Assembly: GCA_964619365.1 (NCBI GenBank)
Contig: CAZUDQ010000007.1
Span: forward strand, 22,179 to 86,178
From: an uncultured archaeon
GTDB lineage: Archaea; Altiarchaeota; Altiarchaeia; JAFGQM01
Direction: 5' to 3'
DNA: 64,000 nucleotides
The notes under the pieces were generated by a model that did no database searches, was not told the DNA's origin, and saw only the letters and a program-made list of their open reading frames with translations. The position numbers and the translations under genes are program-made. Within the stretch, counting starts at the first letter, position 1, and every line of letters starts with the position of its first letter. This document shows, piece after piece, positions 3,034 to 29,173 of the stretch.

Positions 3034-3804
3034 TTACAACTCATTAGGCTTAACATATCCCCTGTATATCCTGCCCCCTGGGTGGACCGTTACAACACCT
3101 GGTGCCTTTTTTTTGTTTTTAGCAGTACTGCCACGCAAATGCAGATTGTCAATTATCCCGTCTTCTTTTAGTTTCTTTCCCACTTCACCAATAGACTCAT
3201 ATGCTTTTTTGGATTCTGGCAGCACGAATCCGAACCTGTGAGGCAATGGGTCACCTTTTATCCCCGTCATCTCTATCTTTGCACTTTTGGGGGAAAGCTC
3301 CCTTGCGGCACTTGCCATTTGCAAGATTACTTCATTATGTGGAATATCATGGACCTTGATGGGTTCACCTTTTTTTAGTTTTTCTTTTATTGTCCTTAGC
3401 TTTTCTGCCCGCTCTTCTTTTGGCATCTTTTCCCAGTCTTTAGCGCTCTTTGAAAAAGTATGTACTGCCTGCCTTATTGTCTTACTGCCATTGCCACCTG
3501 TTATGAATCTTTTATAAGCTCCATTATCAATTTTGCCATTAGAGTCAAATAACATAACTTTTATGGGATATACGTGATACAAGAATACTGGCTTGTCCTT
3601 TCTCCTGCTTTTCGCCTGCACAACTACTGATGAACATATCGGCATCTTAGTTGTTGCTAAGGGACGCTTATTAGCTTTCCCGACCATCTCCTCACTTATC
3701 CATCCCGGTTTAGAGAATAACGCTCTTTTTGTCTTTGCTTCAGAGCCCAGGCGAATTTTTGGCTTGAGTTTTCTGCTGACTTTCTTTTTGGGAATCGGAG
3801 ACAT
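3034..3804 (-). CDS. Basic orphan protein with a possible CheD/CNF1-like cysteine deamidase motif
   Basis: 256-aa ORF with K/R-rich leader MSPIPKKK; TxxMxxC...HxxP motif (TTKMPICSSVVV...LYHVYP). Confidence 0.45.
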   Translation of the reverse strand: MSPIPKKKVSRKLKPKIRLGSEAKTKRALFSKPGWISEEMVGKANKRPLATTKMPICSSVVVQAKSRRKDKPVFLYHVYPIKVMLFDSNGKIDNGAYKRFITGGNGSKTIRQAVHTFSKSAKDWEKMPKEERAEKLRTIKEKLKKGEPIKVHDIPHNEVILQMASAARELSPKSAKIEMTGIKGDPLPHRFGFVLPESKKAYESIGEVGKKLKEDGIIDNLHLRGSTAKNKKKAPGVVTVHPGGRIYRGYVKPNEL

Positions 3805-3879
3805 CTTTTACTAATTTACCTGACTTACAGACTAAAACCATTAGGACTAATTTTTTAGTGTCCAAAGCAAATTATTAAT

Positions 3880-5829
3880 GTGAATAAAAAAATCATTGTT
3901 CTGGTTTTTGCAATACTCTTGTTATGTCCCTTTGCACTTGGCAAAAGTTATTCCCTCAAAAGCGCTGATGTAAATTATGATATTCTTCCTGATGGGCGCG
4001 TCCTTGTCAAGCAGACAATAGCCTACGATTTTAACGGTGATTTCTCTTTTGCTTATCTTGATATTCCAAAAGGCTCCTGGCAGATAAAAGATGTTGTGGC
4101 TTATGATGTTTCTGGGCCAAGGAAAAAACTTGTAGTTGATACAAAAGGCGAAGGTGGATATGACAGGATAACCTGGTATTATTCTGCAAACAGCGAACCT
4201 AAGGACTTTGAGATAAGTTACACCCTAACTGGCGCAGTTACAAAATATGATGATGTGGCCGATTTCTACTGGAAGGTTTGGGGTGATGAGTGGGACCATT
4301 CCATTGGCGATCTCCTTGTCTCTGTTAATCTCCCTGGGAAAGTCAATCCAGATGAGCTTTACGCCTGGCGCCATGTTGAAGGTGAACGCTACGCTGATGC
4401 GAAATGGGGTCTCTTAGATGATAACAAGACTTATCTTTTTGAGGTCTTGGGCGTGCAAAGTAATACCTATGTTGAACTCCGACTTGCCATCCCAAGCGAC
4501 ATGATAACTGGAGCTTACGCAATCCAAAAATCGGGAAGCGGACTTAATGCAATAGAAGCACAGGAGGATAGCTTTGAGAAAATTGACGAATTAAACGCAG
4601 AAATATTCTCTGTTATGCTTTTTCTTTTACCGGGAGCCTTCATTCTCCTTTTTGTGGGTATCGCAGTTACTCTTTTAGGCAAGGATGACTCGGCAATTAT
4701 TGTTAGAATAGCTGTTATCGTCTTAATATCTTCCTTTGTCGTCTTTATTTCAACACTTTTCAAACCAGATTATGTCTTAACTGCGATTTTTGTCGCAATT
4801 GAAATAGCTCTTTTTGTAATCTGCAACAGGCGTTTTGTGTCACACTGGAAAACCGAGAACAAAGATATATTTGAGCGTGAGATTCCGGGTGACTATGGTC
4901 CTGCCACGTTAGGTGTCCTTCTCTCCGGATGGGGACGCGCGCCAAACGTCAAATGCATGGCAGCTGACGTTCTTGACATCTGCACGCGCGGCAAGATGAA
5001 GATTGAAAAGACGGGTGAGGGCAAAAAAGATTATAGCTTAAATATAATTAATGAAAGCGGAGCAGGTCTAACGCCCAGTGAGAAGGTTCTTTTCAGGGAA
5101 ATAAACCACGCGGCAAGATTTGGTTGGGAAAAGAATGGCTTTTTTAGCATGACAAAAAAGGTCGCAAGTTCCGACTCAAAAAGCCTCACCTTAAAAGAAT
5201 GGGAGAAATGGCTGAAAAACGACCAAAGTAATGCCCAGTCATTCTTTAACGATTGGAAAGAAGGTGCAAGCAAATATGCTAAGTCCTTAGAACTTATCCC
5301 AAAAGGTTTTAACAAGGCAATAGCTCTTTTTATCGGTATAAGTATCGGACTTCTTTTCCTTGGAATATTTGTTTCCCCTTCATCGGTCTTTGCTATGGCC
5401 GGTACTGCAATAGCCCTGATTTTACTATTCCCTAACGCGCTTGTGACAGAAACTAAAAAGGGTGCAGAAGACAGGACTCGCTGGATGCGCCTAAGAAAGT
5501 TCCTAAAGGAGGCAAGTAACATAAAGAATATGAACGCAGACGCCGTAGTTTTATGGGAAAAATACCTCGTTTACTCAATCCCTCTTGGCGTTGCAGACAA
5601 GGTTGAGCGCACGATGGGCACAGCATTTAAAGAGTATGGAAAGAACCAAGCTTATCCTGGCGTGATATTTGCCGGAAGCGCGGCAAGCTTTGCCTCATCT
5701 TCATCATTTTCAAGCGCAATTTCAGGTTTCTCGACTTCTTTTGCTTCAAGCACAGCTACTGCTGGCGGAGCTGGCATCTCTGGTGGCGGTGGTGGGGGTG
5801 GAGGAGGCGGTGGCGGTGGCGCAGGGTAA
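3880..5829 (+). CDS. DUF2207 family membrane protein
   Basis: Signal peptide, extracellular beta domain (DFYWKVWGDEWDH), TM helices, LWEKYLVYSIPLGV motif, Ser/Gly-rich tail GGGGGGGGGAG. Confidence 0.85.
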   Translation: MNKKIIVLVFAILLLCPFALGKSYSLKSADVNYDILPDGRVLVKQTIAYDFNGDFSFAYLDIPKGSWQIKDVVAYDVSGPRKKLVVDTKGEGGYDRITWYYSANSEPKDFEISYTLTGAVTKYDDVADFYWKVWGDEWDHSIGDLLVSVNLPGKVNPDELYAWRHVEGERYADAKWGLLDDNKTYLFEVLGVQSNTYVELRLAIPSDMITGAYAIQKSGSGLNAIEAQEDSFEKIDELNAEIFSVMLFLLPGAFILLFVGIAVTLLGKDDSAIIVRIAVIVLISSFVVFISTLFKPDYVLTAIFVAIEIALFVICNRRFVSHWKTENKDIFEREIPGDYGPATLGVLLSGWGRAPNVKCMAADVLDICTRGKMKIEKTGEGKKDYSLNIINESGAGLTPSEKVLFREINHAARFGWEKNGFFSMTKKVASSDSKSLTLKEWEKWLKNDQSNAQSFFNDWKEGASKYAKSLELIPKGFNKAIALFIGISIGLLFLGIFVSPSSVFAMAGTAIALILLFPNALVTETKKGAEDRTRWMRLRKFLKEASNIKNMNADAVVLWEKYLVYSIPLGVADKVERTMGTAFKEYGKNQAYPGVIFAGSAASFASSSSFSSAISGFSTSFASSTATAGGAGISGGGGGGGGGGGGGAG

Positions 5830-5862
5830 AGGTTTTAAGCTTTTATCGTGTAAGAATAACTG

Positions 5863-6333
5863 ATGCCAAAGCCTAGAATAACGGTTATGATGAAAAGAGC
5901 TGGAGATAAGCACTATCTTGGAAGTAAAGATATCTCTGGTGAGACCCGCATAGGTAGGAAGATGCATCCAGAAGGTATACACTTGCCGTTTTCACCAATA
6001 GCAGTAACTGGGAAGGAACGCGCCCTTCAAAGAATAAGGAAACTTAAAACAGAGGGACTCCGCAATGAATTTGAGGGACTTACGCCCGAGGATTTAGCAT
6101 TGTATGAGGGGATAAGTAGGCACGCAGGGACCTTTGTTCCCACTGAAAACGGAATCAGATATCATCAAGTTTCAGAAAACCCGTCATCCCATGCAAGGCT
6201 CAATGGAAGCGAGGTCTTGCCGGGCAATCATGTGGATTTGGGGCATGGTGCAATACTCACATTCCATGGGATGAATGGTGAAGAGTTAGCTCACCTGCAG
6301 GTTCATATGCAAAAACCTATGGAAAATAAATAA
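5863..6333 (+). CDS. FHA-domain protein with basic MPKPR leader
   Basis: FHA signatures in order: IGR, ISRHA, RLNG, VDLGHGAILTF. Confidence 0.6.
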   Translation: MPKPRITVMMKRAGDKHYLGSKDISGETRIGRKMHPEGIHLPFSPIAVTGKERALQRIRKLKTEGLRNEFEGLTPEDLALYEGISRHAGTFVPTENGIRYHQVSENPSSHARLNGSEVLPGNHVDLGHGAILTFHGMNGEELAHLQVHMQKPMENK

Positions 6334-6334
6334 G

Positions 6335-7366
6335 ATGCCTATACCCAGAGTTCATATCTCGGCAAAGAGATTTAACGTAAGGCCAGAGTTCAATCGAGCC
6401 TTTGCCACAAGGGAGATAAAACCTGGAGAACGAGTTCCTGTCGGCAAAAGAAAAACTAAGGGCGGCATACATCTGCCGTTTTCAGACAGAGCCGAAGAAT
6501 ATGGTCATTTGCCAGGACAAAGGATGCTTTTACCTGTGGAAAAAGGCAGAACCTATGTGGGAATTGATCCAAAGGTGGGCACGTTTAGAAATTATGGAAA
6601 AGAATTTAGATATACCCAAAATTCAGATAATGCATCTTCGCGTGTTTATCATAACGGAAGAGGGCTTTTAGGGGGTGAGGACATCGCAGTTTCTCACGGC
6701 GACCTCCTTGAATTGCGTGATAAGGAAGGCGGCCCTCTGGTTCAAATGCATGCTGACCTCAAAGAGGAAGGACCCATAGTCACATTTTCAGGATATAAGA
6801 TTACGCCTGGGGAAGAGATTCATGTAAAGGCGCATGATAGTAATTATTTTATTGACAAACATGGCGTATTGCACAGGGGTTTTAAAAAATTCGGCGAGAT
6901 AAGTCATATTGTAAATGTGAGTCCTGAAGAAAAAAGTCAATTAGTCCAGTTTAAAAGACCTGAAGAGATAACTGGAAAGGAAATTAATGAGAAATTCGGG
7001 GTTACGGATATGTTTACGCCCATTATATTTCTAAACCCAAAAGATCCAGAATATAACTTAGGGTGGGAAGAATGGAAAAAGTCCATTTGGGAGCTCAGAC
7101 ATAAGGTTTCGCCATACTTTATGCCAAGAACTATGCTGTCTGCTGAATTCAATGAACTGGCATTAGGGCGGCTTGCGCGCATTACGGTGCCCAAGGGTTC
7201 GACAAACGATTTTGTCCTTATACGCAAAAAGGGGGAAGACGGATTTCAACGATTTTATCGTATAGGTGCTACACCCCCACCCAAGATTGGCAACATAAAG
7301 TTGCCGGATATGCCTGAGGCAAAACTACCTGACTCAAGCAATGTACGTTTACTCGGGGAAAAATAA
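6335..7366 (+). CDS. Degenerate FHA-domain protein plus unknown C-terminal domain; paralog of upstream gene
   Basis: Shares GIHLPFS, GTF, RYxQxSxNxSS, NG and HG blocks with 5863..6333. Confidence 0.5.
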   Translation: MPIPRVHISAKRFNVRPEFNRAFATREIKPGERVPVGKRKTKGGIHLPFSDRAEEYGHLPGQRMLLPVEKGRTYVGIDPKVGTFRNYGKEFRYTQNSDNASSRVYHNGRGLLGGEDIAVSHGDLLELRDKEGGPLVQMHADLKEEGPIVTFSGYKITPGEEIHVKAHDSNYFIDKHGVLHRGFKKFGEISHIVNVSPEEKSQLVQFKRPEEITGKEINEKFGVTDMFTPIIFLNPKDPEYNLGWEEWKKSIWELRHKVSPYFMPRTMLSAEFNELALGRLARITVPKGSTNDFVLIRKKGEDGFQRFYRIGATPPPKIGNIKLPDMPEAKLPDSSNVRLLGEK

Positions 7367-7450
7367 TACTGGACGGATTAACTCCCCTTCTCTTTTTTAG
7401 GAAAGGGCCACTAAATTAAATAACCTTTTAAACGATGACAACAAAATAAA

Positions 7451-7627
7451 ATGACAGTAACAGTAGATAAGGAAAGGTGTGTGGGCTGTGGTGCCTGCGT
7501 AAGCATTTGTCCTGCCGGCGTCTTTGAGATAGTCGATGGCAAGGCCGAAGTAAAGAATCCAGACGCTTGTGTTATGTGCAAGAACTGCGAGAACTCCTGC
7601 CCTGCGGGCGCTATCAAAGTCGAGTAA
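7451..7627 (+). CDS. 2x[4Fe-4S] ferredoxin
   Basis: Manual translation MTVTVDKERCVGCGACVSICPAG...ACVMCKNCENSCPAGAIKVE with two CxxCxxCxxxCP motifs; 58 aa, below ORF-track cutoff. Confidence 0.92.
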   Translation: MTVTVDKERCVGCGACVSICPAGVFEIVDGKAEVKNPDACVMCKNCENSCPAGAIKVE

Positions 7628-7650
7628 AGCGTCTTTTTATTATTTTTAAA

Positions 7651-8028
7651 ATGGACGAAGAAACTTCTAAAGTAGCTGTGGTAGAAACAGTTAGGGATGA
7701 TTCAAAAGAGAAATCAGAAAGGAATTCAAAACCCGACTGGAAGAAGAAACGCCGCCAAATGGATGACAACGTCATTTATGTCGGTAAAAAGCCTGTCATG
7801 AACTATGTAATGGCAGCAATAACACAGCTTAATAAGGGTGAAAAGGAAGTCCATGTAAAGGCAAGAGGTCGAAGCATCAGTAAGGCTGTTGATGTGGTGC
7901 AACTCCTAAAGAACCGCTTTGAATGTGGTGCAGAGATATCGGGAATAGACATTGACACCGAACAAGTTGAAGCTGACGAGGGTGGCAAGATAAACGTTTC
8001 GACAATAGATATTTCGATAAAGAAATAA
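7651..8028 (+). CDS. albA: DNA/RNA-binding protein Alba with N-terminal extension
   Basis: IYVGKKPVMNYV and KARGRSISKAVDV Alba signatures; ATG at 7651. Confidence 0.93.
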   Translation: MDEETSKVAVVETVRDDSKEKSERNSKPDWKKKRRQMDDNVIYVGKKPVMNYVMAAITQLNKGEKEVHVKARGRSISKAVDVVQLLKNRFECGAEISGIDIDTEQVEADEGGKINVSTIDISIKK

Positions 8029-8049
8029 TCTTTTCTTTTTTAAGAGGCA

Positions 8050-8517
8050 ATGCCTTTTCCAATATGTGAAAGTTGTGCTAAGGACTGCGTCCTTTGCGCA
8101 TCCTGTGAAGAAAAAGTACGAAAGGGAGAGGTTTCAGCCCTTGAAGTTCTTCTATCCCAGATTCTTGCCAAACACAAGGCAAAAGGATTTGGCGAAGTGC
8201 GGGATTTTGAAACTCGCCTTGTGATATTTGCAAGTGAAGAAGATGCTCCGGCAATAATCGGGAGAGGGGGTTATGTCGCAAAAGAACTCTCGGACAAACT
8301 AGGGAAAAGAATTATTGTAATCGTTCCTGGTTGGGATTTAAAGACTACGGTGAGTTCTATTGTACGTCCCGCAAATCTTATTGAGATGAAAATAGAGCCT
8401 AGCTGGGAAGGTGAATCTATTTTAAGGTTTATACTCGATAAACATATAGACGAACGGACAAGAAACTTCATATCAGAACTTTGCGGGGGGGCAGAGATTG
8501 ATATCTTACAAAAGTAA
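8050..8517 (+). CDS. Archaeal NusA-like KH-domain protein with N-terminal Zn-binding motif
   Basis: PICESCAKDCVLCASCEEK and KH-like IIGRGG. Confidence 0.7.
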   Translation: MPFPICESCAKDCVLCASCEEKVRKGEVSALEVLLSQILAKHKAKGFGEVRDFETRLVIFASEEDAPAIIGRGGYVAKELSDKLGKRIIVIVPGWDLKTTVSSIVRPANLIEMKIEPSWEGESILRFILDKHIDERTRNFISELCGGAEIDILQK

Positions 8518-8586
8518 AAATACAAAATAATATTTGCCAGTTGCCTGATAACACCCGGCAGACGCCATAACAAAAATCAAACTAAA

Positions 8587-10356
8587 ATGAAGCGCAGCCA
8601 CAATTGCGGAGACCTTAGGGAATCAGATACCGGGAAGAAAGCATTACTCCAAGGGTGGGTCAATACAAGACGTGACCACGGGGGTGTGATATTCATCGAT
8701 TTAAGGGATAGGTACGGCCTTACACAGGTATGTTTTGACCCAAAAACATCAGAAACCGCACATAAGCTCGCCGAAGACCTCGGCCGCGAATATGTTATTG
8801 AAGTTGCAGGCACGGTTGCAAAGAGGCCGGGTGGGATGGAGAACCCAAAACTTGCAACAGGAAAAATTGAGCTTGACGCGAGTGAACTTAAGATACTAAA
8901 TGAGGCAAAAACCCCTCCTTTTGAGCTTGACGACCGTACCGATGTAAATGAGGATTTGAGGCTCAAATACCGTTATATTGACCTTAGGCGCGAGCGCATG
9001 CAAAAAAACTTGATTCTAAGGCACGTTGTGACAAAGGCGGCGCGCGATTACCTAAGTGATAACGACTTCCTTGAAATCGAAACGCCGATACTTGGCAAGT
9101 CAACGCCAGAAGGCGCACGCGACTATCTTGTGCCAAGCAGGGTTCATCCCGGAAAATTCTATGCGCTGCCGCAATCTCCTCAGCTTTTCAAACAGCTTCT
9201 TATGGTGTCTGGCTTTGACAGGTACGTCCAGTTTGCAAAGTGCTTCAGAGATGAAGATTTACGCGCAGACCGCCAGCCTGAATTTACTCAGATAGACCTT
9301 GAGATGAGCTTTGTTGAGGTTGAAGATATCCTTGAGTTAATGGAAGGAATGATTACCCGTATCTGGAAAGACGCAAAAGGCGTTGACTTAAAGACTCCAT
9401 TCCCACGTATGAAGTACGCTGAGGCTATGGCGCGCTTTGGTTCAGACAAACCTGATTTGCGCTTTGGAATGGAACTTATCGATGTTGAAGACGCCATTAA
9501 AGGCTGTGACTTCGGAGTTTTTAATAAAGCCATTGAACTGGGTGGTTGTATTCGCTGTATAAACGCCAAAGGATGCGCAAGCTTTTCAAGAAAGGACATT
9601 GACGGACTGACGAAGTTTGTTGCGATATATGGAGCAAAAGGCCTTGCCTGGATAAAAGTCTCAGAAGAAGGCAATCTCGAGTCATCAATAGTAAAATTCC
9701 TTAATGAAGATAATCAGAAGAAACTAGTAGAAGTAACTGGCGCAGAAAAAGGAGACCTGCTTCTCTTTGTCGCCGATAAGCATAAGACTGTGCATGACTC
9801 TTTAGGAGCGCTCAGATGCGAGCTTGCGCGCCGCCTTAATCTCCTGGATTCTGAGGAGTATAAGTTTGTTTGGGTTATTGACTTCCCGCTTTTTGACTGG
9901 GACGAAGATGCAGAACGCCATGTGGCAGTGCACCACCCGTTTACAGCGCCATATGAAGAAGATTTAAAGTTCCTTGAGTCTGACCCCGGGAAAGTGTGTT
10001 CAAAGGCCTATGACCTTGCCTTAAACGGAGTAGAACTCGGTGGGGGAAGCATAAGAATACATCAGAGGGATATTCAGGAAAAGATGTTTAAGGCTCTTGG
10101 GATTAGCGTAGAAGAAGCTCAGGAGAAATTCGGGTTTTTAATGAATGCTTTTACTTATGGGGCGCCACCTCACGGAGGAATCGCCTTTGGGCTTGATAGA
10201 GTAGTTGCAATACTTGCGGGTGAAGAGTCAATAAGAGAAGTCATGGCATTCCCGAAGAACAAAGCCGCCCAAAGCTTAATGGAAGAAGCTCCGGATGCAG
10301 TTTCAAACAAGCAGCTTGACGAGCTTAAAATAACCATTAAGGAAAAGAAATCCTGA
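8587..10356 (+). CDS. aspS: Aspartate--tRNA ligase, bacterial type with GAD insert, probably non-discriminating
   Basis: 589 aa; RRDHGG, STPEGARDYLVPSR, FRDEDLRADRQPEFTQ, GAPPHGGIAFGLDR; GAD domain (YGAKGLAWIKV). Confidence 0.96.
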   Translation: MKRSHNCGDLRESDTGKKALLQGWVNTRRDHGGVIFIDLRDRYGLTQVCFDPKTSETAHKLAEDLGREYVIEVAGTVAKRPGGMENPKLATGKIELDASELKILNEAKTPPFELDDRTDVNEDLRLKYRYIDLRRERMQKNLILRHVVTKAARDYLSDNDFLEIETPILGKSTPEGARDYLVPSRVHPGKFYALPQSPQLFKQLLMVSGFDRYVQFAKCFRDEDLRADRQPEFTQIDLEMSFVEVEDILELMEGMITRIWKDAKGVDLKTPFPRMKYAEAMARFGSDKPDLRFGMELIDVEDAIKGCDFGVFNKAIELGGCIRCINAKGCASFSRKDIDGLTKFVAIYGAKGLAWIKVSEEGNLESSIVKFLNEDNQKKLVEVTGAEKGDLLLFVADKHKTVHDSLGALRCELARRLNLLDSEEYKFVWVIDFPLFDWDEDAERHVAVHHPFTAPYEEDLKFLESDPGKVCSKAYDLALNGVELGGGSIRIHQRDIQEKMFKALGISVEEAQEKFGFLMNAFTYGAPPHGGIAFGLDRVVAILAGEESIREVMAFPKNKAAQSLMEEAPDAVSNKQLDELKITIKEKKS

Positions 10357-10362
10357 GTTTTT

Positions 10363-11313
10363 ATGGATGTGTCTAACGCCCTTGGCAAGTGGGGGATTTC
10401 CGGTGAACTCTGTGAAAAAATAGAGATTCATGGGAGTCCTGAACGAAGCGAGTGGCGTAGTGTTGTTAAGAGTGACTCTTCTGAAAAATTCCTTCTTGAA
10501 GAAATCTGGCCCTTCCAGATATCCACAAGAAAAAGAATTGCGCAAGCCCAGGAGGAACTTTCTTCAAACGGACTAAACGCCGTGTTTCCCTACCTCAAAA
10601 GTGAAGCTGGGGAATTTGTGGGGGAAGCAGATGGCAGATTCTGGATGCTTTCTCCGTTTATAGAGGGTCTAGAGCTCACGCGACCGGATTACATCTATGA
10701 CGAATGGCGCGGCAAGCTTCTTTCAGATTGGTTAATTGCGCTTGGAAAAAAGAGTGATGAGGTTAGTTCTTTTGGAAAGGACGCAGTCTTTGACCTTAAA
10801 GCGTATTGCTTTAAGATTTACCGGGATGTCATGCTAAATGACCCCTACATCCTGCCGCAGGTTAGTCCCATTTTTAGCTACTTGCGAAAAGAGGATGGCT
10901 TTTTTGAGAATTACCACAAGTTGCCAACATCCTTTTGTCATGGCGACTTTCACGCACTAAATGTCATTTGGGGTGAAGAATCGATAAACGCGGTCATTGA
11001 CTGGGAGTTTTGCGGATATAAGCCCGAACTTTACGATGTTGCAAACATGGTTGGATGCTTTGGGATAGAAAATCCGGCTGGTCTAAAAAAGGGTGCATGT
11101 CCTGCCTTTATTAAAAATCTCTGCGAGGGGGGCTTTGGAGAAAATGTGGGTTGGGAGAATTTTACCAAAACCGTTCTTGCACTTAGATTCGCCTGGCTTG
11201 CTGAGTGGCTAAGGAAAAAGGACAAAGAGATGACCAGTCTTGAACTTGACTACATGACTCTTTTACTTGACTCAGAAAAAGAGCTTAATTCTTCTTGGGG
11301 GATTTTAGACTAA
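10363..11313 (+). CDS. Aminoglycoside phosphotransferase family kinase (type II homoserine kinase-like)
   Basis: CHGDFHALNVIW and IDWEF catalytic motifs. Confidence 0.8.
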   Translation: MDVSNALGKWGISGELCEKIEIHGSPERSEWRSVVKSDSSEKFLLEEIWPFQISTRKRIAQAQEELSSNGLNAVFPYLKSEAGEFVGEADGRFWMLSPFIEGLELTRPDYIYDEWRGKLLSDWLIALGKKSDEVSSFGKDAVFDLKAYCFKIYRDVMLNDPYILPQVSPIFSYLRKEDGFFENYHKLPTSFCHGDFHALNVIWGEESINAVIDWEFCGYKPELYDVANMVGCFGIENPAGLKKGACPAFIKNLCEGGFGENVGWENFTKTVLALRFAWLAEWLRKKDKEMTSLELDYMTLLLDSEKELNSSWGILD

Positions 11314-11764
11314 GGGCAGAATTGACTTCGGACTCATCAAGAACGCCGTCATCAATAAGCTCTCGAACACGTTTTAGAAAATCCATTGTAAACTCTTTCA
11401 TCGCGCGCCTGAACGGTTCATTTCCCTTGCTTGTATCCTTTGGGTCCTGTAAGAGAAGTACGAGCCAGTGCATTTTTTCCGGGACAAAAAGATATTTCTT
11501 CCAGCCTCGCACTTTTTCCATTCCCTCGTTAAGAACGCCTATCCTTGAAAGTTCAGATATATGCTGGATTACTGTCTTGTTAGAATATGGGAGCGCAGCT
11601 ATTATATCTTGCTGGTAGACTTTTTCCTTAACGCCAAAACAGTCCTCTGAAAAAAACAGGGACAATATCTTGACATTTACTTTGGAGCCGAAAAAACCTT
11701 CAAGTAATTCGGATCTTGCCTTTGATTCTGCGGGTAAAAATACTATGCATGGAATTTCTGTCAT
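11285..11764 (-). CDS. Winged-helix transcriptional regulator, divergent from ECF operon
   Basis: FFGSKVNVKIL...YQQDII...SNKTVIQHISELSRIGVL wHTH pattern. Confidence 0.65.
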   Translation of the reverse strand: MTEIPCIVFLPAESKARSELLEGFFGSKVNVKILSLFFSEDCFGVKEKVYQQDIIAALPYSNKTVIQHISELSRIGVLNEGMEKVRGWKKYLFVPEKMHWLVLLLQDPKDTSKGNEPFRRAMKEFTMDFLKRVRELIDDGVLDESEVNSALSLKSPKKN

Positions 11765-11806
11765 TTTGACTTAGATATATTTTTATACTACTAACTTAAA
11801 AAACTG

Positions 11807-11840
11807 TGTAATAAATTACATGGTATTGTAAAAAAGTACA
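11807..11840. promoter_or_regulatory. Tandem palindromic operator (TGTA-N6-TACA twice)
   Basis: TGTAATAAATTACA (11807-11820, perfect 6-bp arms) and TGTAAAAAAGTACA (11827-11840), 20 bp apart, between regulator and ECF operon. Confidence 0.6.
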
Positions 11841-11850
11841 TAGATAAAAA

Positions 11851-12588
11851 ATGGAAACGACAGTAAGGCGGATAGTGCCATATTCACTTAAGATAACGAC
11901 AGTCGGCGTCTTTGCCGCGATAACTCTTGTTTTGATGATTGTGCCCTTGCCCTCTATTGGCTACATAAATTTATCGGCAGTAATGGAAACGATTGGGGGA
12001 ACTATAGGCTCAGTTTTGCTATTGGGCGCTTTAGGGGTTGTTCTTGGCTCGGTCATTTGGAATTTTGTATCGCCAAATGCGCTTTTCCTGCAACTTGGTT
12101 TTTTGCCTATGGCCGCAGGCGCGCTTTCAATAGGGCTTCTCGTACAAAAGAAGTGGATACCTGTTGTCATCTTCGGGCTTATCGTCTTTGCGCTTTTCTT
12201 CCTCTCACCGGGCGGGGCAGAAGTACCCTTGTGGACGGTTTCAGACAAGCTCGTTTCAGTATTCCTTGCAATTCCTGCCGCAATTCTTGCGGGAAAAGCC
12301 TTTGGAAAGAAACTTAATATAAAATGGCTTATTGTTGCAATCTTTCTGATATCTTTTGTCGGCTTGCAGATTGATGGAATGGTCGGAAATACGCTATTTG
12401 GCTGGTATGGGTATTCAGCAGTTGGTATGAGCGCTTCGGATGTTGCCCCTATGTTTACTGTCGGGTTTTATGTATCCATAATAGAACGAATTGTAGTCGC
12501 ATTGGTCTCAACCGGAATAACCGTTCCGATTGTTATTGCAATGGATAAAAACCCTAAAACCAGGTGGATGATACAACGAAACGAGTAA
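11851..12588 (+). CDS. ECF transporter substrate-specific (S) component
   Basis: Highly hydrophobic; VGVFAAITLVL...GYINLS and IERIVVAL; first gene of EcfA/EcfT operon. Confidence 0.7.
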   Translation: METTVRRIVPYSLKITTVGVFAAITLVLMIVPLPSIGYINLSAVMETIGGTIGSVLLLGALGVVLGSVIWNFVSPNALFLQLGFLPMAAGALSIGLLVQKKWIPVVIFGLIVFALFFLSPGGAEVPLWTVSDKLVSVFLAIPAAILAGKAFGKKLNIKWLIVAIFLISFVGLQIDGMVGNTLFGWYGYSAVGMSASDVAPMFTVGFYVSIIERIVVALVSTGITVPIVIAMDKNPKTRWMIQRNE

Positions 12589-16052: not shown

Positions 16053-16088
16053 AGCTTTAAAGCTTTTCACTTTCTAATTAATCCTGCA

Positions 16089-18152: not shown

Positions 18153-18158
18153 CCAAGC

Positions 18159-18547: not shown

Positions 18548-19345
18548 ATGAAGACTCCAGCTCTATTTGCAATAATATCTATTGCTGTTTTGGCATTAAG
18601 TGGTCTTGTTGCTGCAACTTGTCCAGGCACAAGCGGAGATTGGGCAGATGACACTTATACCCACTATGACTGTGTCCTTTTGAAACCCTCAGAGGGTTAT
18701 GAAATTGACTATTCTAACTTGAGTGTACACGAAGTTAATGCTATTGAAGGTGACGAACTTTACATTTACTGCACTAAGACTGATAACATTGGTACAAAAA
18801 CCGAAAATCCGTTATCTAGTGCATATGTGGGTATACAGGGTTATGATGAATTTGAATTCTTAGTGTTTGACGAATCTGGAAGTACTGATAAAAACGGCAT
18901 TTTTAAATTCAGTCCACCATACCCTGGAAGTTATAGGATTATAATTAATGAGTGTGATTATGATTCAATCTTAAAAGTTTCGCCCCGTCCGATAATCTGT
19001 GGAGACGATATCTGCGAAGGCGATGAACACTGGGGTACTTGCCCAGAGGACTGTGACTCAGGAGCTGATGACACTTATTGCGACATGGTCGAAGACGGAA
19101 TCTGCGACCCTGACTGTGATGAGATAACAGACATAGACTGCAAAGAGGTTGTAGTAGTTGAGGAGGAAGTTGTCATAGTATCACGCGGACCGACAGGAGC
19201 CATTGTTGCAAGCGAACTGACTTTACTTGAAACAGAAGCAAATGAGGGTGGAATCCTTAGTTTCTTAAGAGGCATTGGAAGCCCTGTTGCAAAGCAGGAG
19301 GCTTCAGGCTTAATGCTCTTTTTGATGGGCTTTTTCGGCGGATAA
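18548..19345 (+). CDS. Secreted/surface protein with Cys-rich acidic module
   Basis: Signal peptide; Ig-like segment; CGDDICEGDEHWGTCPEDC and DGICDPDC motifs; PTGAIV stalk motif. Confidence 0.65.
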   Translation: MKTPALFAIISIAVLALSGLVAATCPGTSGDWADDTYTHYDCVLLKPSEGYEIDYSNLSVHEVNAIEGDELYIYCTKTDNIGTKTENPLSSAYVGIQGYDEFEFLVFDESGSTDKNGIFKFSPPYPGSYRIIINECDYDSILKVSPRPIICGDDICEGDEHWGTCPEDCDSGADDTYCDMVEDGICDPDCDEITDIDCKEVVVVEEEVVIVSRGPTGAIVASELTLLETEANEGGILSFLRGIGSPVAKQEASGLMLFLMGFFGG

Positions 19346-19371
19346 GTGTTTTTCCGCGCGCGTCTTATATT

Positions 19372-19749
19372 TTACTTATAGACTTCTTTTGGGTCAAAGA
19401 CTTTTTGACCTATAATCTTTAAATCGTCTAGCTTGCGGTAAAAACAGCTGGAGTAGCCCATGTGGCAGGCGCCGCCCGTTATGGAACAGATGTAAAGCAG
19501 CGCATCAGCGTCGCAGTCAACACGCGCCTCACGGACTTTCATGACGTTCCCCGACTCTTCGCCTTTTTTCCAAAGCTTGTTTTTGGATGTCGAGAAAAAA
19601 TACATCTCGCCGGAGTCTTTTGTGAGATTGAATGCCTCCTTGTTTTGAAAAGCAGTCATTGCGACTTCCCCCGAGTCTTCGTTTTGAACTATAGCTAAGA
19701 CTAGCTCTGTCCCGTCGATATTCCGTTTCTTTAAGTCTTTCCAGTCCAT
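19372..19749 (-). CDS. hisI: Phosphoribosyl-AMP cyclohydrolase
   Basis: LWKKGEESGN, DCDADALL, ACHMGYSSCFY. Confidence 0.95.
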   Translation of the reverse strand: MDWKDLKKRNIDGTELVLAIVQNEDSGEVAMTAFQNKEAFNLTKDSGEMYFFSTSKNKLWKKGEESGNVMKVREARVDCDADALLYICSITGGACHMGYSSCFYRKLDDLKIIGQKVFDPKEVYK

Positions 19750-19792
19750 AGGTATAGTTTATCTGCTAATTGTTATAAAACCTGGGATAGAA

Positions 19793-20239
19793 CTAAATCC
19801 TTAAGTTAAAGATTATAACTTTCTGTCCGTCAAGAATCCCATCCGAGTCCTTCTCAAATCCGGATGAGATAAAGAACTTTTGCGCACTGGAATTTTCAGC
19901 CTTGACTTTTGACACGGCCACTTTTGCGCCAAGTGCTTTTGAATAATCAAGAGTATGCTTAAGGAGCGCCTTTGCAATGCCTTTCTTGCGCAAAAACCCC
20001 TCTACACCAACGGGTCCGATTTCGATAAACGGCAGGTGCTCATAGTTTACTCCGCAAAAGCCGACTAAGAGTGAATCCTCCTCTGCAACAAACATGGAAA
20101 AGCGAGGATGAATCGACATCTGTATCAGAAAATCCGGGTTTACCGGGTACTGGAAATGCTCAAGGTTCTTGTTGCTTAGCTCGGCAAGCGCCACTGCGTC
20201 TTTTGGCAAGAATTCGCGGATAGTGTAGTCCTTAGGCAT
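19793..20239 (-). CDS. GNAT family N-acetyltransferase
   Basis: LVGFCG, RKKGIAKALL acetyl-CoA motif, NSSAQKFFISSGF. Confidence 0.85.
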   Translation of the reverse strand: MPKDYTIREFLPKDAVALAELSNKNLEHFQYPVNPDFLIQMSIHPRFSMFVAEEDSLLVGFCGVNYEHLPFIEIGPVGVEGFLRKKGIAKALLKHTLDYSKALGAKVAVSKVKAENSSAQKFFISSGFEKDSDGILDGQKVIIFNLRI

Positions 20240-20240
20240 T

Positions 20241-21026
20241 TTAGAGCCTCATGGGGATTCCTTCTTTTGAGAGGTACTCCTTAACGTCTTTTATCGAGTA
20301 TTCCCCAAAGTGGAATATTGATGCGGCAAGAGCAGCATCGGCCTTTCCTTCCTTAAGGGCTGCGGCAAGGTGTGCAGGTTCTCCCGCGCCGCCTGAAGCG
20401 ATGACTGGGATTGATACGGCCTCGGATATTGCGCGCGTGAGTTCTAGGTCATAACCTGTTTTTACCCCGTCAGTATCCATTGATGTAAGGAGTATTTCGC
20501 CTGCTCCAAGCCGCTCAGCTTCCTTAGCCCATCCCAAAGCGTCAATACCAGTGTCTTCGCGCCCACCGTAAATCCAGACGTTCCATCCAGGACCTTCCTT
20601 GGGGGTTACATCGCGCCTTTTGGCATCAATTGCAACGACGATGCACTGATCGCCAAACTTCCTTGAGCCTTCACTAATTAGCTTTGGGTTCTTTATTGCA
20701 GCAGTATTTATCGAGGTTTTATCTGCTCCTGCGCGAAGGGCTCGCTCCATATCAGTTACAGTCCTAATCCCGCCGCCAAGCGTTACCGGAACAAAAACAC
20801 GCTCAGTTGTGCGCTTAAGGACGTCCCACATAGCCTCACGGCGCTCGTGGCTTGCAGTAATATCAAGAAAGGTGATTTCGTCAGCGCCTTCATTATAATA
20901 GAACTCTGCGCGCTCTACAGGGTCGCCCGCGTAGCGAATCTCCTTAAACTTTACCCCCTTGACAACGCGCCCGCCAGGAACCGAAAGGTCGCAATCAAGA
21001 CAAGGGATTATCCTTTTTTTAAGCAT
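20241..21026 (-). CDS. hisF: Imidazole glycerol phosphate synthase cyclase subunit
   Basis: [46 protein letters not shown]; start at ATG 21026. Confidence 0.96.
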
Positions 21027-21073
21027 CTTAAAAACAGCGTCTATTTTTGTCCTTTTGGAGATAAAACTAAGTA

Positions 21074-22765
21074 ATGGCAAGGCCGAAGGCTAAAAAGAGT
21101 GGGAATGCACCCAAAAAACTACAAAATCGGGCAAGAGTAGTTAGTTTGGATGGGGTATTCAGGCGCGCTGGAAAAACCGCGCCATTCAAGAACTCGTTGA
21201 CCTTCAGAGAGGCACTTAGAAAAGACTTAACACGATCTGTTGATGAGATTGAGCGACATGGCAGTGTAGATCAAGAACAATTACCGATAGGTCTTGCTAC
21301 ATCTCTAGAAACTAAGCGAAGGATTAGGGTTGTAGAAGAGAATGCAGCCAATGATACATGGATAAAAAATATGAAAGATGGGCAACATCCTTATCGAAAA
21401 AATAAAAGGACACTCTTGCCCGAAACTGGCATAGTGAAAATAAATGGCCAGGAGCATTATACGACAGGAAAAATCATATCTATGGCGGGCTCAAATTCTC
21501 CGTTTAAATCTCCCCAAGAACTCACGGAATATATCCGAAGGCTTCGACTCCGTACAGAAAAGCTTTCAGGCGGTGAATTCCGTCCATTAGGCTTGCCAAA
21601 GCTAAATGGTGTTAAAAACTATTCCAAAGGCAAACGAAAAAACGCAGGGCTTGTTGTTGAGGGGAAAAAGGCTAAGAAATGGATTTTAAAGTTGTCCCAG
21701 GGCGTTAATCCCTTAAATTCTAAAGAGGCGCTTCCAGGTAGATGGAAAAACTCCAACGGTGAAAAATATAGTACATTAAGTCATGCCGAAAAAGGGACTA
21801 ATATACCTCATGACACTATGAGGGGGGCAGTATTAAGACATTTTGACAGCACTAGAACCCTTCCGGAAGGTGTTGAGGAAGTAAACTGGGGCAAGACTAA
21901 GATTTTTTTGATATCTGACGGAAGACTTGCTTTATGGGGGGAAAGATATTCTGCCGGGATGAATCTAATAAAACCTGGAGAAAAGATTAAGGCTCAGGCT
22001 CAGTTTGTTGATGAAAACGGTAAAAAAATCTGGAAAGATGCAATTAGGCTAAGGGATACTGGTGAAGTTACTGGGGGAGTTTTAAGTAGAGATAGTGTAG
22101 CTTCTGCAATAAAGGGGGAGAGAATACCAAAAAGGTATATAGGTAGAAATAGTCTTTTTCCTAGGATGAAGTTCGTAGATAAAAAATATCTTGAAGATAG
22201 TGCAGAAAGGAAGAAAAATGGCAAACTTCCATATCATATTGAACAGAAAAATATTTCTCTTGTTTCAAAAAATTCAGGGGAAAAGTTTCGGCCCGTCTCC
22301 AATATTAAGGAACTCAGCAACGGCCACATAAAGAACTCGAAAGAATTCAATCTACTACGACGAAGAGGTAGAATACCAGATAGCGAAGTCATAGAGTATA
22401 AGGATGGAGGGAAAAGGTTAGCCATTTCAGAAAGATTTCTAAGCCTTATGACACAAAGAGATAAAAGGGGATTAACTTCAGTTCCGACAAAGGCTGAGAT
22501 AGAACTGCACGGGCATGGAATGAGTGATGTTGGAAGCCCAGAATGGGCAAAGGATAACAAGGGCGCATTCAAGCAGTATATTGAATTGGAATCTGCCATA
22601 AAAGCCAATAATCTGGGACCTGCTGAACTAAAGCGAAATCTAAGGGAAAGAAACAAGCTCCTAGAGGATATGGGACTAAACTTAAACAACAATAGGCGTG
22701 ACCCAGATGAAGTTATACTTCAAGGCCTGAATTTTTTAAGGGACTCTGAAAATCTAACAACTTAG
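21074..22765 (+). CDS. Large basic orphan protein with HTH-like repeats and GSPEWA C-terminal domain
   Basis: 563-aa open frame, very K/R-rich; C-terminus similar to downstream gene. Confidence 0.55.
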
Positions 22766-22892
22766 TTGGAGAAAGAAAACCTCTAAGGGCCAATCCTATT
22801 TTGTTATTTAGTGCTTGTCTTTTTGAGTCTATTTTTCTTCTTTTAGAGATAAATGTACATAACAACGTTGCCCATGTTCTCAAGTAAAAATA

Positions 22893-23630
22893 ATGAAATT
22901 TAATCGGCATAAACCTGGAATCTGGCTCAATGAAAAGGGCATTAAACATTATTCTGTTAAGGAGGCAAGCAAGGTATCAGGCGTTCCAAATACCAAGCTG
23001 AATAATAAGATCCAAGGTAGCAAGCAAAAAGAAGGGAAACTCCCGGCTAACGTCCATCAGATTCAGACGAATGGGCGTCGGTCCCTATATGTCATTAACG
23101 AAAATGAGCTCACCTTGTGGAAAAGTGAACATGAGGCAAGCATCAAGCGCTTAAAACAACGGGCTGAGAAGAAAGCTCTTGACGAAACAAAACGTAAAGA
23201 TAAGTTGGTCAGAAAAGCGACTGTTTCAGGGATTCGGGCAGCATTTAAGTCAGATGCTGCGCATAATGAGCTTGCACGTACTGATAGGACCCTTTCCAAA
23301 CGGTCCCTTGAAATAGCTAAGGCGCGCATTAGTTACAAGGTTCCTTCGTTTCTAAGCCCAAGAGAAATCGTCAATAGGCACCCAGGGAGCCCGGAATGGG
23401 CCGAATTACATGAAGAAAACATTCCTCGATTATTGGAAACCAATAAGAAGGTACATGAATTATCCCTCAGACTCAACAAAACGCACGATGAAAAGATTAA
23501 AGTGGAATTAAATGGGATGATGGAAAAGCAGGAAAAACTCCAGCAACATATGAATCTTTCCAGTAGTAATGAGAATCCTAGTGAGATTGCCCTCAGTGGG
23601 CTAAAAGCTCTACGAATGAAAAATAATTAA
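22893..23630 (+). CDS. Basic orphan protein with N-terminal excisionase/MerR-like HTH and GSPEWA C-terminal domain
   Basis: HYSVKEASKVSGVPNTKL HTH-like segment; PGSPEWA...PSEIALSGLKALR. Confidence 0.55.
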   Translation: MKFNRHKPGIWLNEKGIKHYSVKEASKVSGVPNTKLNNKIQGSKQKEGKLPANVHQIQTNGRRSLYVINENELTLWKSEHEASIKRLKQRAEKKALDETKRKDKLVRKATVSGIRAAFKSDAAHNELARTDRTLSKRSLEIAKARISYKVPSFLSPREIVNRHPGSPEWAELHEENIPRLLETNKKVHELSLRLNKTHDEKIKVELNGMMEKQEKLQQHMNLSSSNENPSEIALSGLKALRMKNN

Positions 23631-26870: not shown

Positions 26871-28619
26871 ATGGAATTCTTGGCTGTTGCAGAGGCGTTT
26901 GACAAGCTTGAGGCTACCGCATCCCGCCTGGAGATGACAGATATCCTAGCTGAGCTCTTTAGTTCTGCCCCCCCTGAAGAAGTGGGTAAGATATCTTATC
27001 TTTGCCTTGGGCATTTTGGTCCAGAATATGACGAGCGCGTCTTGGGTCTGGGGGATAAGATTATGCTCAAGGCGATTGCCATGGCAACGCACAGATTAGC
27101 TTCAGACGTCGATAAGAAGTTTAAGGAGCTTGGCGACCTGGGTCTTGTTGCAGAGGATATGATGAGTTCTGGAAAGGGCTTTTCCCTGGCTGCATTTACA
27201 GGTGAGAAAAGGGATAAGATAACTGTATCGCGGCTTTTTGCATCACTTGATAAAATTTCGAAGGCGTCCGGGCAAAAAAGCCAGGACCAAAAAATTAAGC
27301 TTATTGCAGGTCTTCTTGCAGACGCTAGTGGCACTGAAGCAAAGTATATTGTTAGAATCGGCCTTGAGACTATGCGCCTTGGAACGGCTGTCATGACCCT
27401 TCTTGATGCTCTTGCCCAGGTCTATTGCGGCGACAGAAAAGAACGTCCAAAAATAGAGTGGGCCTATAACATATCAAGTGATATCGGACTTATTGCAACG
27501 ACTCTTGGGACTGGCGGCCTTAAGGCCGTTGAGAAAATAGAACCCACTGTCGGGCGCCCGATAAAGATGATGGCGGCTCAAAGGGTAACTGAGCTTGAAC
27601 TCATCCCTGAAAAGATGCCAAAGTACGCAATAGAAGGGAAGTATGACGGCGAGCGGGCCCAAATCCATAAAGACGGCAGTAGTGTAAAGATATTTTCCCG
27701 AAGGCTTGATGAGATAACAGACCAGTATCCTGATGTCGTCGAGTACGTAAAATCCGGAGTCAAGGAGAAATCTGTAATTCTTGAAGGGGAGATTGTCGCA
27801 ATCAAGGGTGAGAAGCTAATGCCCTTCCAGTACCTCATGCAAAGAAAACGAAAGTATGACATAAGGGAATACGTAGCTAAGATTCCTGTAAAAGTATTCC
27901 TCTTTGACGTCCTTTACGCAAAAGGCAAGAGTGTTATGGGTAAGAATTACCCCGATAGAAGAAAACTGCTTGAAGATATGGTCGTCCCTTCAAAAAACCT
28001 TGGAACTTCAATCAGAATAATTCCAAATAACCTTGAGGAAGTCCAAGACTTCTTTGAAAAAGGCCTTGCCCATGGTACTGAAGGCATAATGGCAAAGTCG
28101 CTTGGGGAGGATTCCATTTACCGTGCAGGCGCGCGTGCATGGCTTTGGATAAAATGGAAAAAAGATTATCTTGAGGGGGAAATTGATACTTTTGACCTTG
28201 TCCTGCTTGGTGCTATTAAGGGTACTGGAAAAAGGACGGGGAAATACGGAACTGTAATTGCCGCGACTTGGAACCCTGAACGTGACATCTTTGAGAGTTT
28301 CTGCAAAATTGGGACAGGCTTTACTGATGAGACGCTTGACGGCATGCCTGAGAAATTCAAGAAAATCGAGACTAAAAATAAGCCTAAAAACGTAGAATGC
28401 GAGCTTGATGCCGACATCTGGTTTGTGCCTGAGATTGTCCTTGAAGTATCTGGCGCTGAGATTACTGAGTCCCCACTTCATGCGTGTGCCAAGACCGAAC
28501 TTAGAAAGGGTCTCTCGCTTCGTTTCCCACGCTTTAAGCAGTATAGGGAAAACAAGTCTGCAGAGCAGGCGACAACAACTGCTGAAGTGATATCAATGTA
28601 TGAAGGTGCAAAGAATTAG
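26871..28619 (+). CDS. lig: ATP-dependent DNA ligase
   Basis: EGKYDGERAQIH, EGIMAKS, WIKWKKDY, SLRFPRF. Confidence 0.97.
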   Translation: MEFLAVAEAFDKLEATASRLEMTDILAELFSSAPPEEVGKISYLCLGHFGPEYDERVLGLGDKIMLKAIAMATHRLASDVDKKFKELGDLGLVAEDMMSSGKGFSLAAFTGEKRDKITVSRLFASLDKISKASGQKSQDQKIKLIAGLLADASGTEAKYIVRIGLETMRLGTAVMTLLDALAQVYCGDRKERPKIEWAYNISSDIGLIATTLGTGGLKAVEKIEPTVGRPIKMMAAQRVTELELIPEKMPKYAIEGKYDGERAQIHKDGSSVKIFSRRLDEITDQYPDVVEYVKSGVKEKSVILEGEIVAIKGEKLMPFQYLMQRKRKYDIREYVAKIPVKVFLFDVLYAKGKSVMGKNYPDRRKLLEDMVVPSKNLGTSIRIIPNNLEEVQDFFEKGLAHGTEGIMAKSLGEDSIYRAGARAWLWIKWKKDYLEGEIDTFDLVLLGAIKGTGKRTGKYGTVIAATWNPERDIFESFCKIGTGFTDETLDGMPEKFKKIETKNKPKNVECELDADIWFVPEIVLEVSGAEITESPLHACAKTELRKGLSLRFPRFKQYRENKSAEQATTTAEVISMYEGAKN

Positions 28620-29173
28620 GGTCTGCTCATTTTTGCCATATCCTCGTAAGTCTTAATTACCGTTCCGTGATATGGGTGCCTCATAGAATCTGCCATTAGC
28701 TCTTTTGAATGATTCTCAAGCTGTTTTTTATCGAGCGTGCTATTAAACTTCATAAATTTCTTAAATCCTCTTTCTGAAGGGAAATTGCGTCTAAGCTGTG
28801 CAAGTCTAAATGCGTTTTCAGGACCGACGTTGTGATACTTAAGAACTTCATTTGTTGTTTTTATGCTGTGAACATTATTTGCTCTTGCAACAAGCTGCAA
28901 GTCCTTTGCCGTTTTGACTTTAGGATGGCTTGCAGCGGCTTCAGTTTCTTCTGGATGATTCTGGACAATGTAACGTGTGAAATGTTCAAGGCTTGCGCCG
29001 TCTATTTTTCCACTATAAAGCTTGTGCTGCTTGCTTGCCGCATTTACCGCGTCTGCCCCCCATGAATCCTGAAGCCTTCTGACTTCCGGGTTGCTTACTA
29101 CCATTGGTTTTTTCCTAAAGAAAAATCCAAAAAAGCCTCTTTTTTTAGGGGCTCTTTGTTTTGGTTTTGGCAT
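28616..29173 (-). CDS. Basic orphan protein with MPKPK leader
   Basis: 185-aa ORF with upstream TATA-like GCTTTTATC; no recognisable family. Confidence 0.55.
   Translation of the reverse strand: MPKPKQRAPKKRGFFGFFFRKKPMVVSNPEVRRLQDSWGADAVNAASKQHKLYSGKIDGASLEHFTRYIVQNHPEETEAAASHPKVKTAKDLQLVARANNVHSIKTTNEVLKYHNVGPENAFRLAQLRRNFPSERGFKKFMKFNSTLDKKQLENHSKELMADSMRHPYHGTVIKTYEDMAKMSRP

Follow-up and report, generated by a model that had tools for sequence, protein, structure and literature searches.

Why should proteins with little else in common begin with the same run of prolines, lysines and arginines? The question arises from a 64,000-nucleotide stretch of the genome of an uncultured archaeon of the Altiarchaeota (assembly GCA_964619365.1, contig CAZUDQ010000007.1; C7:22179-86178, called the window throughout), in which six open reading frames (ORFs), P0001 to P0006, encode basic proteins and lie between housekeeping genes. 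A first-pass annotation, made from the letters alone, ascribed to five of them a shared leader without a hydrophobic region and proposed that it directs effectors into a host cell. A shared leader exists: it is specific to the N-terminus, far beyond chance and found genome-wide. All six ORFs are genuine, narrowly distributed genes and fall within a class of about 34 of the 1163 proteins called in this genome.

An N-terminal leader on basic orphan proteins

The assembly comprises 1.21 Mb in 17 contigs at 43% GC and is 85% complete. Genes were called with a dicodon model of our own, trained on 454 long ORFs, and the choice of start codons was likewise our own; of 1168 genes called, five were dropped because of an X or a stop, and the remaining 1163 cover 90% of the genome. 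A basic set of 198 proteins was defined by an isoelectric point (pI) of at least 9, no predicted transmembrane segment and a length of at least 60 aa. Pfam at E<=1e-4 divided this set into 74 Pfam-negative proteins, the sense in which orphan is used here, and 124 Pfam-positive ones.

The strict motif, defined for this split as ^M.{0,2}P.P[KRH], is carried by 15/74 of the Pfam-negative and 0/124 of the Pfam-positive proteins (Fisher 1.5e-7), and the leader is indeed commoner in orphans than in conserved basic proteins. At least two prolines in residues 2-9 were found in 30/74 against 4/124 (2e-11), and Pro at residue 2 in 22/74 against 9/124; Pro at residue 4 is also present in 22/74 of the orphans. 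Over all 1163 called proteins the pattern ^M.{0,2}P.P[KR] occurs in 13, every one with a pI of at least 9.3 and a low coding score. Paralogy cannot account for the excess, because the 15 strict-motif proteins form 13 groups without a BLASTP link at E<=1e-4. Nor is the motif a by-product of composition: MP.P[KR] was observed 10 times against 0.03 expected from the bodies of these same proteins, and P.P[KR] within the bodies is if anything under-represented (0.2 per 1000 aa against 0.41 expected). At the DNA level a degenerate pattern for MPKPK has seven matches in the genome, all opening ORFs of at least 119 aa, compared with none for the reversed control; in forty relatives the same pattern gave 20 matches against 17 for the control, and three of the 20 open an ORF of at least 80 aa with no upstream in-frame ATG.

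Among 68 basic Pfam-negative proteins of at least 100 aa, Pro makes up 22.8% of residues 2-5 compared with 4.7% of the body, Lys plus Arg 28-32% of residues 2-13 compared with 19%, and Asp plus Glu 4% of residues 2-9 compared with 12%; this profile was not seen in basic Pfam-positive or in non-basic soluble proteins. A class of 34 leader-bearing orphans was delimited by Pro in residues 2-6, at least three Lys or Arg in residues 2-14 and no Asp or Glu in residues 2-10. Its members are soluble, very basic, His-rich and Cys-poor (0.4% Cys against 1.2-1.6%), are replaced quickly from one relative to the next, and are dispersed as singles and pairs over 13 contigs. One part of the first-pass annotation is therefore supported, namely that unrelated proteins which evolve fast have in common an N-terminal module under selection.

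Selection is mainly on the amino acids, since neither Pro codons (p 0.15) nor Lys codons (p 0.50) are chosen differently in the leader and in the body. The start sites hold as well: in each of 13 unrelated groups the motif coincides precisely with the first ATG. The annotated starts also agree with TATA-like boxes found between -36 and -28 relative to the ATG, a spacing that implies 5' leaders of very short length. Shine-Dalgarno sites are found in ~10% of orphans and of housekeeping genes alike, and the AAA-ATG-G context in which housekeeping genes start is missing from the orphans. A promoter-plus-leader cassette spreading among genes was considered and rejected, as the upstream regions of the MPKPK genes have only TATA-like elements and those resembling the B recognition element (BRE) in common.

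With Sec, Tat and class III signal peptides the leaders share an N-terminal position and a positively charged n-region, but the likeness does not extend to the residues that follow. No member of the class (0/34) reaches an 8-residue Kyte-Doolittle window of at least 2.0 in the first 40 residues, which bears out the description of leaders without a hydrophobic h-region and separates them from Sec-type signals, whereas 70/92 of the acidic membrane or surface proteins of the genome pass the same test. A Tat-like RR motif was found in 0/34, and a loose prepilin-like pattern ([KR]G and a hydrophobic stretch) in 1/34, so that a class III signal does not describe the class either; hydrophobic cores are present in the genome's own pilin-like and acidic surface proteins. 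The contrast with acidic surface proteins that had been pointed out is also genuine, the six ORFs having pI values of 9.3-10.2 and a BLAST-linked family of 45 members, presumably surface proteins, a pI of about 4.1 (nearly all 4.1-4.5). Members of this acidic family, exemplified in the window by 18548-19345 (+), mostly have one to three predicted transmembrane segments and reach up to 4275 aa.

The leader goes with basic bodies. A body pI (residue 21 to the end) of at least 9 was found in 38/48 soluble proteins with the loose leader and in 155/696 others (p 1.6e-15), and 14/16 strict-motif proteins have a body pI of at least 9.3. An address tag that could be moved freely from protein to protein would not be expected to be confined so nearly to basic bodies. 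Similar N-termini also occur on the ribosomal proteins S3Ae (MAKPAKKSK) and L5e/L18 (MATGPKYSVKFRR), on tRNA-splicing endonuclease (MPAKKSLIK), on two PadR regulators and on Nre; nine of the Pfam-positive basic proteins combine Pro in residues 2-6 with at least three Lys or Arg, and these nucleic-acid binders are six of the nine. Two GT2 glycosyltransferases, again Pfam-positive, have similar N-termini too. For one conserved leader-bearing family an AlphaFold2 (AF2) model of good quality was obtained (9 sequences; predicted local distance difference test, pLDDT, 81; predicted template modelling score, pTM, 0.81), in which residues 1-18 are disordered and are followed by a folded, enzyme-like body.

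The six ORFs, their relatives and their bodies

The positions, strands and first residues given for the six ORFs in the first-pass annotation all proved correct, and each ORF begins with the earliest start codon that follows an in-frame stop. None has a predicted transmembrane segment, and none has a match worth naming in Pfam at E<=1. P0001 (3034..3804, - strand; 256 aa, pI 10.2) carries the leader MSPIPKKKVSRKLKPK. P0002 (5863..6333, +; 156 aa, pI 9.3 with a body pI of 6.8; leader MPKPRITVMMKR) is a short tandem paralog of P0003 (6335..7366, +; 343 aa, pI 9.5; leader MPIPRVHISAKR), to whose N-terminal 150 residues it is homologous; the two are 32% identical over ~150 residues with M1, P2, P4, R5, K11 and R12 invariant, and to call the five leader-bearing ORFs unrelated was an overstatement. 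P0006 (28616..29173, -; 185 aa, pI 10.2), one of the seven MPKPK-starting ORFs of the genome, has the leader MPKPKQRAPKKR followed by GFFGFFF and then RKKP.

P0004 (21074..22765, +; 563 aa, pI 10.1) bears the leader, with an in-frame stop 6 nt upstream of its ATG. P0005 (22893..23630, +; 245 aa, pI 10.1) lacks the strict leader (MKFNRHKPG) and is a shortened paralog of P0004, as had been recognised (BLASTP E 4e-9 and 2e-6; tblastn 2.4e-5), aligning with its residues 221-318 and 379-560. The promoter and 5' region of P0004 (21039..21074, +) is duplicated upstream of P0005 (22827..22862, +) at 81% identity. Both genes lie in a 2.6-kb insertion that separates HisF from a phosphoribosyltransferase gene, the two being adjacent in four relatives; flanking repeats or target duplications were sought around the insertion and only the promoter duplication was found. 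HisF itself was called at 20241-21080 (-) from a TTG at 21080. Its relatives start MLTKRII, and going by that resemblance an ATG near 21026 (MLKKRII) is probably the true start, in which case only ~47 bp would separate the divergent start codons of HisF and P0004.

Searches for homologs returned little. P0001 found only itself at E<=0.001 among 5.8e9 protein clusters, P0004 was a singleton in the 5.8e9-cluster search and had no relative in viral contigs, and P0003 found only itself by full phmmer among 1.84e9 representatives. P0003, P0004 and P0006 had no tblastn match in 40 relatives, among them a genome of the same genus that is itself distant (ligase 66% and HisF 79% identical). The 74 basic Pfam-negative proteins gave no credible match to the 38,880 families of PHROGs (best E 3.6e-4) and no match to PADLOC; the scans returned only scattered E-values of 3.6e-4 to 9e-3, which were taken as chance. 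The stretch is present, whole or in part, in nine DNA runs labelled salt lake metagenome, and in four of these there were no differences within orphan ORFs over 3000-22900; no RNA run is listed as containing it.

The loose leader also occurs in relatives, two of which were sampled in part (302 and 435 called genes). In those samples it is found on 12/39 basic Pfam-negative and 6/96 basic Pfam-positive proteins, compared with 32/65 and 6/86 in this genome under the same rules; the strict motif is rare there (1 and 0 cases). One leader-bearing family is confined to the taxonomic family, being present, with this genome counted, in 4 of 61 genomes of the class that were searched. Its homologs in the three other genomes begin MPKSKRSRAK, MARAPLKKLGG, MRLPLRIFRQKPEPK and MPKKRPIYAFKPP, and both among these homologs and between paralogs the type of leader is mostly kept while the sequence drifts.

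The domains proposed for the bodies fared unevenly. The CheD/CNF1-like deamidase suggested for P0001 keeps a structural lead: its ESM Atlas model (pTM 0.76) gave rows for NTAN1 (TM-score 0.51), CheD (0.50/0.66) and AvrXv3 (0.48), all below the bar set for naming a fold. Sequence searches lent it no support, neither CheD nor NTAN1 being matched in Pfam at E<=1, and the CheD profile run over the whole genome at E<=10 found a match elsewhere and left P0001 untouched; a single-sequence AF2 model of P0001 was unusable (pLDDT 39). The protein contains a Cys (PICSS) and a His (LYHVYP) that, read by eye, may correspond to a deamidase catalytic pair, and its modelled body is possibly a CheD/NTAN1-type Cys-His deamidase fold. 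The FHA domains attributed to P0002 and P0003 were not recovered, as there was no Pfam match at E<=1 and a profile of the two sequences matched no PDB sequence at E<=10. For the helix-turn-helix (HTH)-like repeats of P0004 and P0005 there are weak Atlas rows to multi-HTH_17 proteins (TM-score about 0.2, range 0.14-0.23 by query; model pTM 0.27) but no usable Pfam match, the best being Mga HTH at E 0.29. Nothing relevant came from searching PDB sequences with P0001, P0005, the P0002/P0003 profile or profile A2.

Outside the window the conserved leader-bearing family of C2:151722 is predicted from its model to fold as a GNAT acyltransferase, and methyltransferase-like motifs were read in some members by eye only. 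The possibility that the proteins belong to ordinary cytoplasmic families is thus half borne out, by the predicted GNAT-like family and by the GT2, tRNA-splicing endonuclease and ribosomal proteins with similar N-termini.

Possible roles of the leader

The reading that we favour, tentatively and at somewhat less than an even chance, is that the leader is a Pro-capped polycationic tail, resistant to proteases and acetylation, by which proteins inside the cell are tethered to a polyanion such as nucleic acid. The tail would be intrinsically disordered and ~10-18 residues long, with Pro at position 2 and/or 4 after the Met (or S/A-P after Met removal), and its run of Lys and Arg, almost without acidic or hydrophobic residues, would bind the polyanion. 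Nucleic acid, whether in the nucleoid, the ribosome or RNA, would be the likeliest partner, and an anionic membrane might serve for members with a basic-Phe-Phe-basic arrangement. Aminopeptidases act poorly on X-Pro bonds, and N-terminal acetylation is blocked by Pro at mature position 1 or 2; the N-terminal prolines may preserve the exposed tail and leave its alpha-amino group unmodified. The domains attached to it are diverse and fast-evolving, and by the leads given above they take in HTH-like repeats as well as deamidase-like, GNAT-like and methyltransferase-like proteins. Tethering is favoured because the leader goes with basic bodies and sits on intracellular nucleic-acid binders, because the tail is a distinct disordered module, selected mainly at the amino-acid level, whose type is kept despite drift, and because weak structural rows connect P0004 and P0005 with multi-HTH DNA binders.

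Basic N-terminal tails are familiar from chromatin proteins such as those of the HMGN and H2B type. Like these and ribosomal basic tails, the leader is short, disordered, rich in Lys and Arg, free of acidic residues, often supplied with Pro and placed at the N-terminus of a basic protein, and S3Ae and L5e/L18 share the style; the known tails act by binding a polyanion in the cell, which for the leader is a prediction. It differs from them in being spread over ~30 unrelated, lineage-restricted proteins, in the fixed Pro register at 2 and 4, and in that neither K[KR].[KR] nor AT-hook cores are enriched. Polybasic-aromatic segments that bind membranes are known from the MARCKS effector domain, and Phe clusters flanked by Lys or Arg resemble them in three members only, P0006 (PKKRGFFGFFFRKKP) and two others (PKPRFFGLLKPKRK and PPPKGFFARRKARK). 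Basic segments of the nuclear localisation signal (NLS) type have been reported in archaeal ribosomal proteins (10.1101/671966; PMC7189692), a further point in favour of tethering.

Several observations weigh against tethering. The NLS-type motif K[KR].[KR] occurs in 4/34 leaders and 14/124 basic Pfam-positive proteins and is not enriched, although such clusters are present in P0001 (PKKKVSRK) and P0006 (PKKR), and an AT-hook core (GRP or RGR in the first 25 residues) was found in 1/34. A purely electrostatic attachment would not call for prolines fixed at positions 2 and 4, but the motif is found strictly at the N-terminus. In two strict-motif proteins the body is close to neutral (pI 6.2 and 6.8), and several bodies are enzyme-like with no obvious tie to nucleic acid (GNAT, the deamidase-like fold, GT2). 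The Arg codons shift in the leader (AGA 63% against 32%, p 7e-4) and the mRNA around the start folds slightly more weakly (-3.0 kcal/mol, compared with -3.9 in housekeeping genes; p 0.03), which together imply some minor selection at the nucleotide level.

These last two features are among those that would be expected if the leader were solely a matter of translation, maturation or stability, an alternative that is unlikely. The leader would then promote efficient initiation on short-leader mRNAs or determine what becomes of the N-terminus, through removal of Met, lack of acetylation and a long half-life, with no binding or targeting role, and would mark young or foreign genes. The lack of Shine-Dalgarno use, the short 5' leaders, the orphans' want of the AAA-ATG-G context, Arg codons in the leader that avoid G, the slightly weaker folding of the start region and the tie of the motif to the very N-terminus all agree with it. 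Against this, synonymous Pro and Lys codons are used alike in leader and body, the enrichment in Lys and Arg and the depletion of acidic residues extend over 13-16 residues, and the restriction to basic bodies is left unexplained. Nor did the 85%-complete genome yield an NTM1-type methyltransferase or an S9 prolyl or dipeptidyl peptidase, enzymes that might act on such N-termini. NTM1/NRMT enzymes recognise a mature N-terminus of the form [A/S/P/G]-P-[K/R]. N-terminal methylation was rejected, as the enzyme (PF05891) was not detected at E<=0.01 and the motif mostly mismatches the consensus (^M[ASPG]P[KR] in 1/34 and ^MP[KR] in 10/34 leader orphans), and so was stepwise X-Pro removal by a peptidase of the DPP-IV type, since no S9 member was found and proteins starting MP- have their prolines in another register than those starting MSP-.

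The proposal of the first-pass annotation was a targeting signal, which in its general form would make the Pro-x-Pro-Lys/Arg N-terminus a tag for export by a non-Sec, non-Tat route, whether to the outside or into the cell of a partner or competitor. Type III secretion signals and the oomycete RxLR motif, the latter placed after a Sec signal peptide, are N-terminal motifs for the translocation of effectors, and the leader is like them in being a short, unstructured N-terminal feature of unrelated, diversifying, lineage-specific proteins, some with folds of the kind found in effector enzymes. A single motif anchored to the N-terminus of 13 BLAST-unrelated groups with a fixed Pro register would suit such a role, as would the very low Cys content, the tandem duplications and lineage-specific insertion, and a turnover so extreme that P0001, P0003 and P0004 are singletons and P0003, P0004 and P0006 are unmatched in 40 relatives. 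Tentative folds common in effectors and toxins (deamidase-like with the AvrXv3 row, GNAT, and methyltransferase-like by eye) point the same way, but among cytoplasmic enzymes, too, the GNAT, S-adenosylmethionine-dependent methyltransferase and GT2 folds are the most common. Also in favour, the genome encodes six ATPases of the T2SSE family that pass the Pfam cut-off, none of them within the window; a search of the 85%-complete genome returned no VirB4-type ATPase. The pilus system to which export had been linked, at 50929-56253 (-), consists of six small pilin-like genes with [KR]GQ (KKGQ) and then a hydrophobic helix, and a gene for a 788-aa protein; none of the seven has a Pfam match, an assembly ATPase was not detected in the locus, and the link is left unsupported.

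Unlike type III and RxLR effectors, moreover, the leader-bearing proteins come with no secretion machine that could be found and no Sec signal peptide, and their export is hypothetical. The genes are scattered over 13 contigs with no machine linked to them, and the coupling of the leader to basic bodies and its presence on ribosomal and tRNA-processing proteins, which are cytoplasmic nucleic-acid binders, speak against an export tag; none of the findings points positively to export or to delivery into a host. Genes for histidine, arginine and aromatic amino-acid biosynthesis are retained, and the symbiotic dependence on a host on which the proposal was built is, in view of these genes, an assumption. 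We know of no such delivery route in archaea, and no description of such a leader was found in the open-access full-text literature. A targeting role in this general sense is accordingly regarded as improbable, and its fuller version, an undescribed archaeal route that takes diversifying effectors with deamidase-, GNAT-, methyltransferase-like and HTH-repeat cargo to partner or competitor cells, as slightly more so.

That the leader-bearing genes are the remnants of one old family, or a pool of virus or plasmid genes, alike by now only at the N-terminus and with tails that once served genome packaging or something similar, has a low probability. P0004 and P0005 do lie in an insertion absent from four relatives, the tandem duplications carry a promoter, the genes are orphans, and their GC content at third codon positions (0.375 against 0.41) and dicodon scores are atypical. 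The 74 orphans, however, had no credible PHROG or any PADLOC match and P0004 no viral relative; the genes are dispersed and not in islands, the MPKPK upstream regions share only promoter-like elements, and the bodies differ in predicted fold. No integrase or transposase was noticed among the window genes in general Pfam scans, and the only tRNA gene of the window (38482-38558) is ~9 kb from the nearest of the six ORFs, the only leader genes for which this distance was checked. It is scarcely credible that the ORFs are not genes, or that translation begins downstream so that leaders are never made, in spite of low dicodon coding scores (0.09-0.38 per residue against about 0.55), given that open frames of 156-563 codons at 43% GC with no competing long ORF on either strand are not chance, that a motif at the first ATG of 13 unrelated groups requires translation from that ATG, that promoter-like elements are correctly spaced, that homologs keep the leader type and that one family gives a confident fold.

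Neighbouring genes and wider meaning

The Pfam content of the rest of the window includes Alba, DUF460, archaeal ribosomal proteins, FtsZ and genes of the histidine, arginine and chorismate pathways. An aspartyl-tRNA synthetase with a GAD insertion domain is encoded at 8587-10356 (+); this insertion is a feature of the bacterial-type architecture and is unexpected in an archaeon. At 14849-15178 (+) lies the gene for a 109-aa Lys-rich protein (MAAKKKTTKKSSKTKTK...), Pfam-negative and with the highest coding score per residue (0.89) among the listed window genes, which from its sequence may be an abundant nucleoid or RNA-binding protein. An encapsulated-ferritin-like protein adjoins aspartate decarboxylase (37238-37492 and 36881-37225, both -). 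Elsewhere in the genome, clusters of eight and five basic Pfam-negative paralogs were noted on C13 (~13.7-18.1 kb) and C6 (~47.7-51.4 kb), some with Cys-x-x-Cys pairs near the N-terminus and one with a neighbour that has a HATPase_c domain. Proteome pI and GC content vary sharply within the family, the median pI being 6.2 at 43% GC in this genome and 7.0 and 8.4 at 49% GC in two relatives, and in relative G004 (L100:4260-7793) a 1177-aa archaeal helicase is split by an intein with a LAGLIDADG domain.

Small-genome archaea have many lineage-specific genes for which databases offer no explanation. In this genome one simple N-terminal feature unites ~3% of the genes and close to half of those that are basic and Pfam-negative. 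If tethering to a polyanion is the true role, these proteins would form a fast-evolving set associated with the nucleoid, RNA or membrane, and the leader would provide a handle for pull-down. Should translocation prove to be the role instead, this would be the first effector-type signal in archaea and would make the molecular basis of cell-cell interaction in archaea accessible to experiment. In both cases the motif offers an inexpensive means of classifying proteins in other genomes of the lineage.

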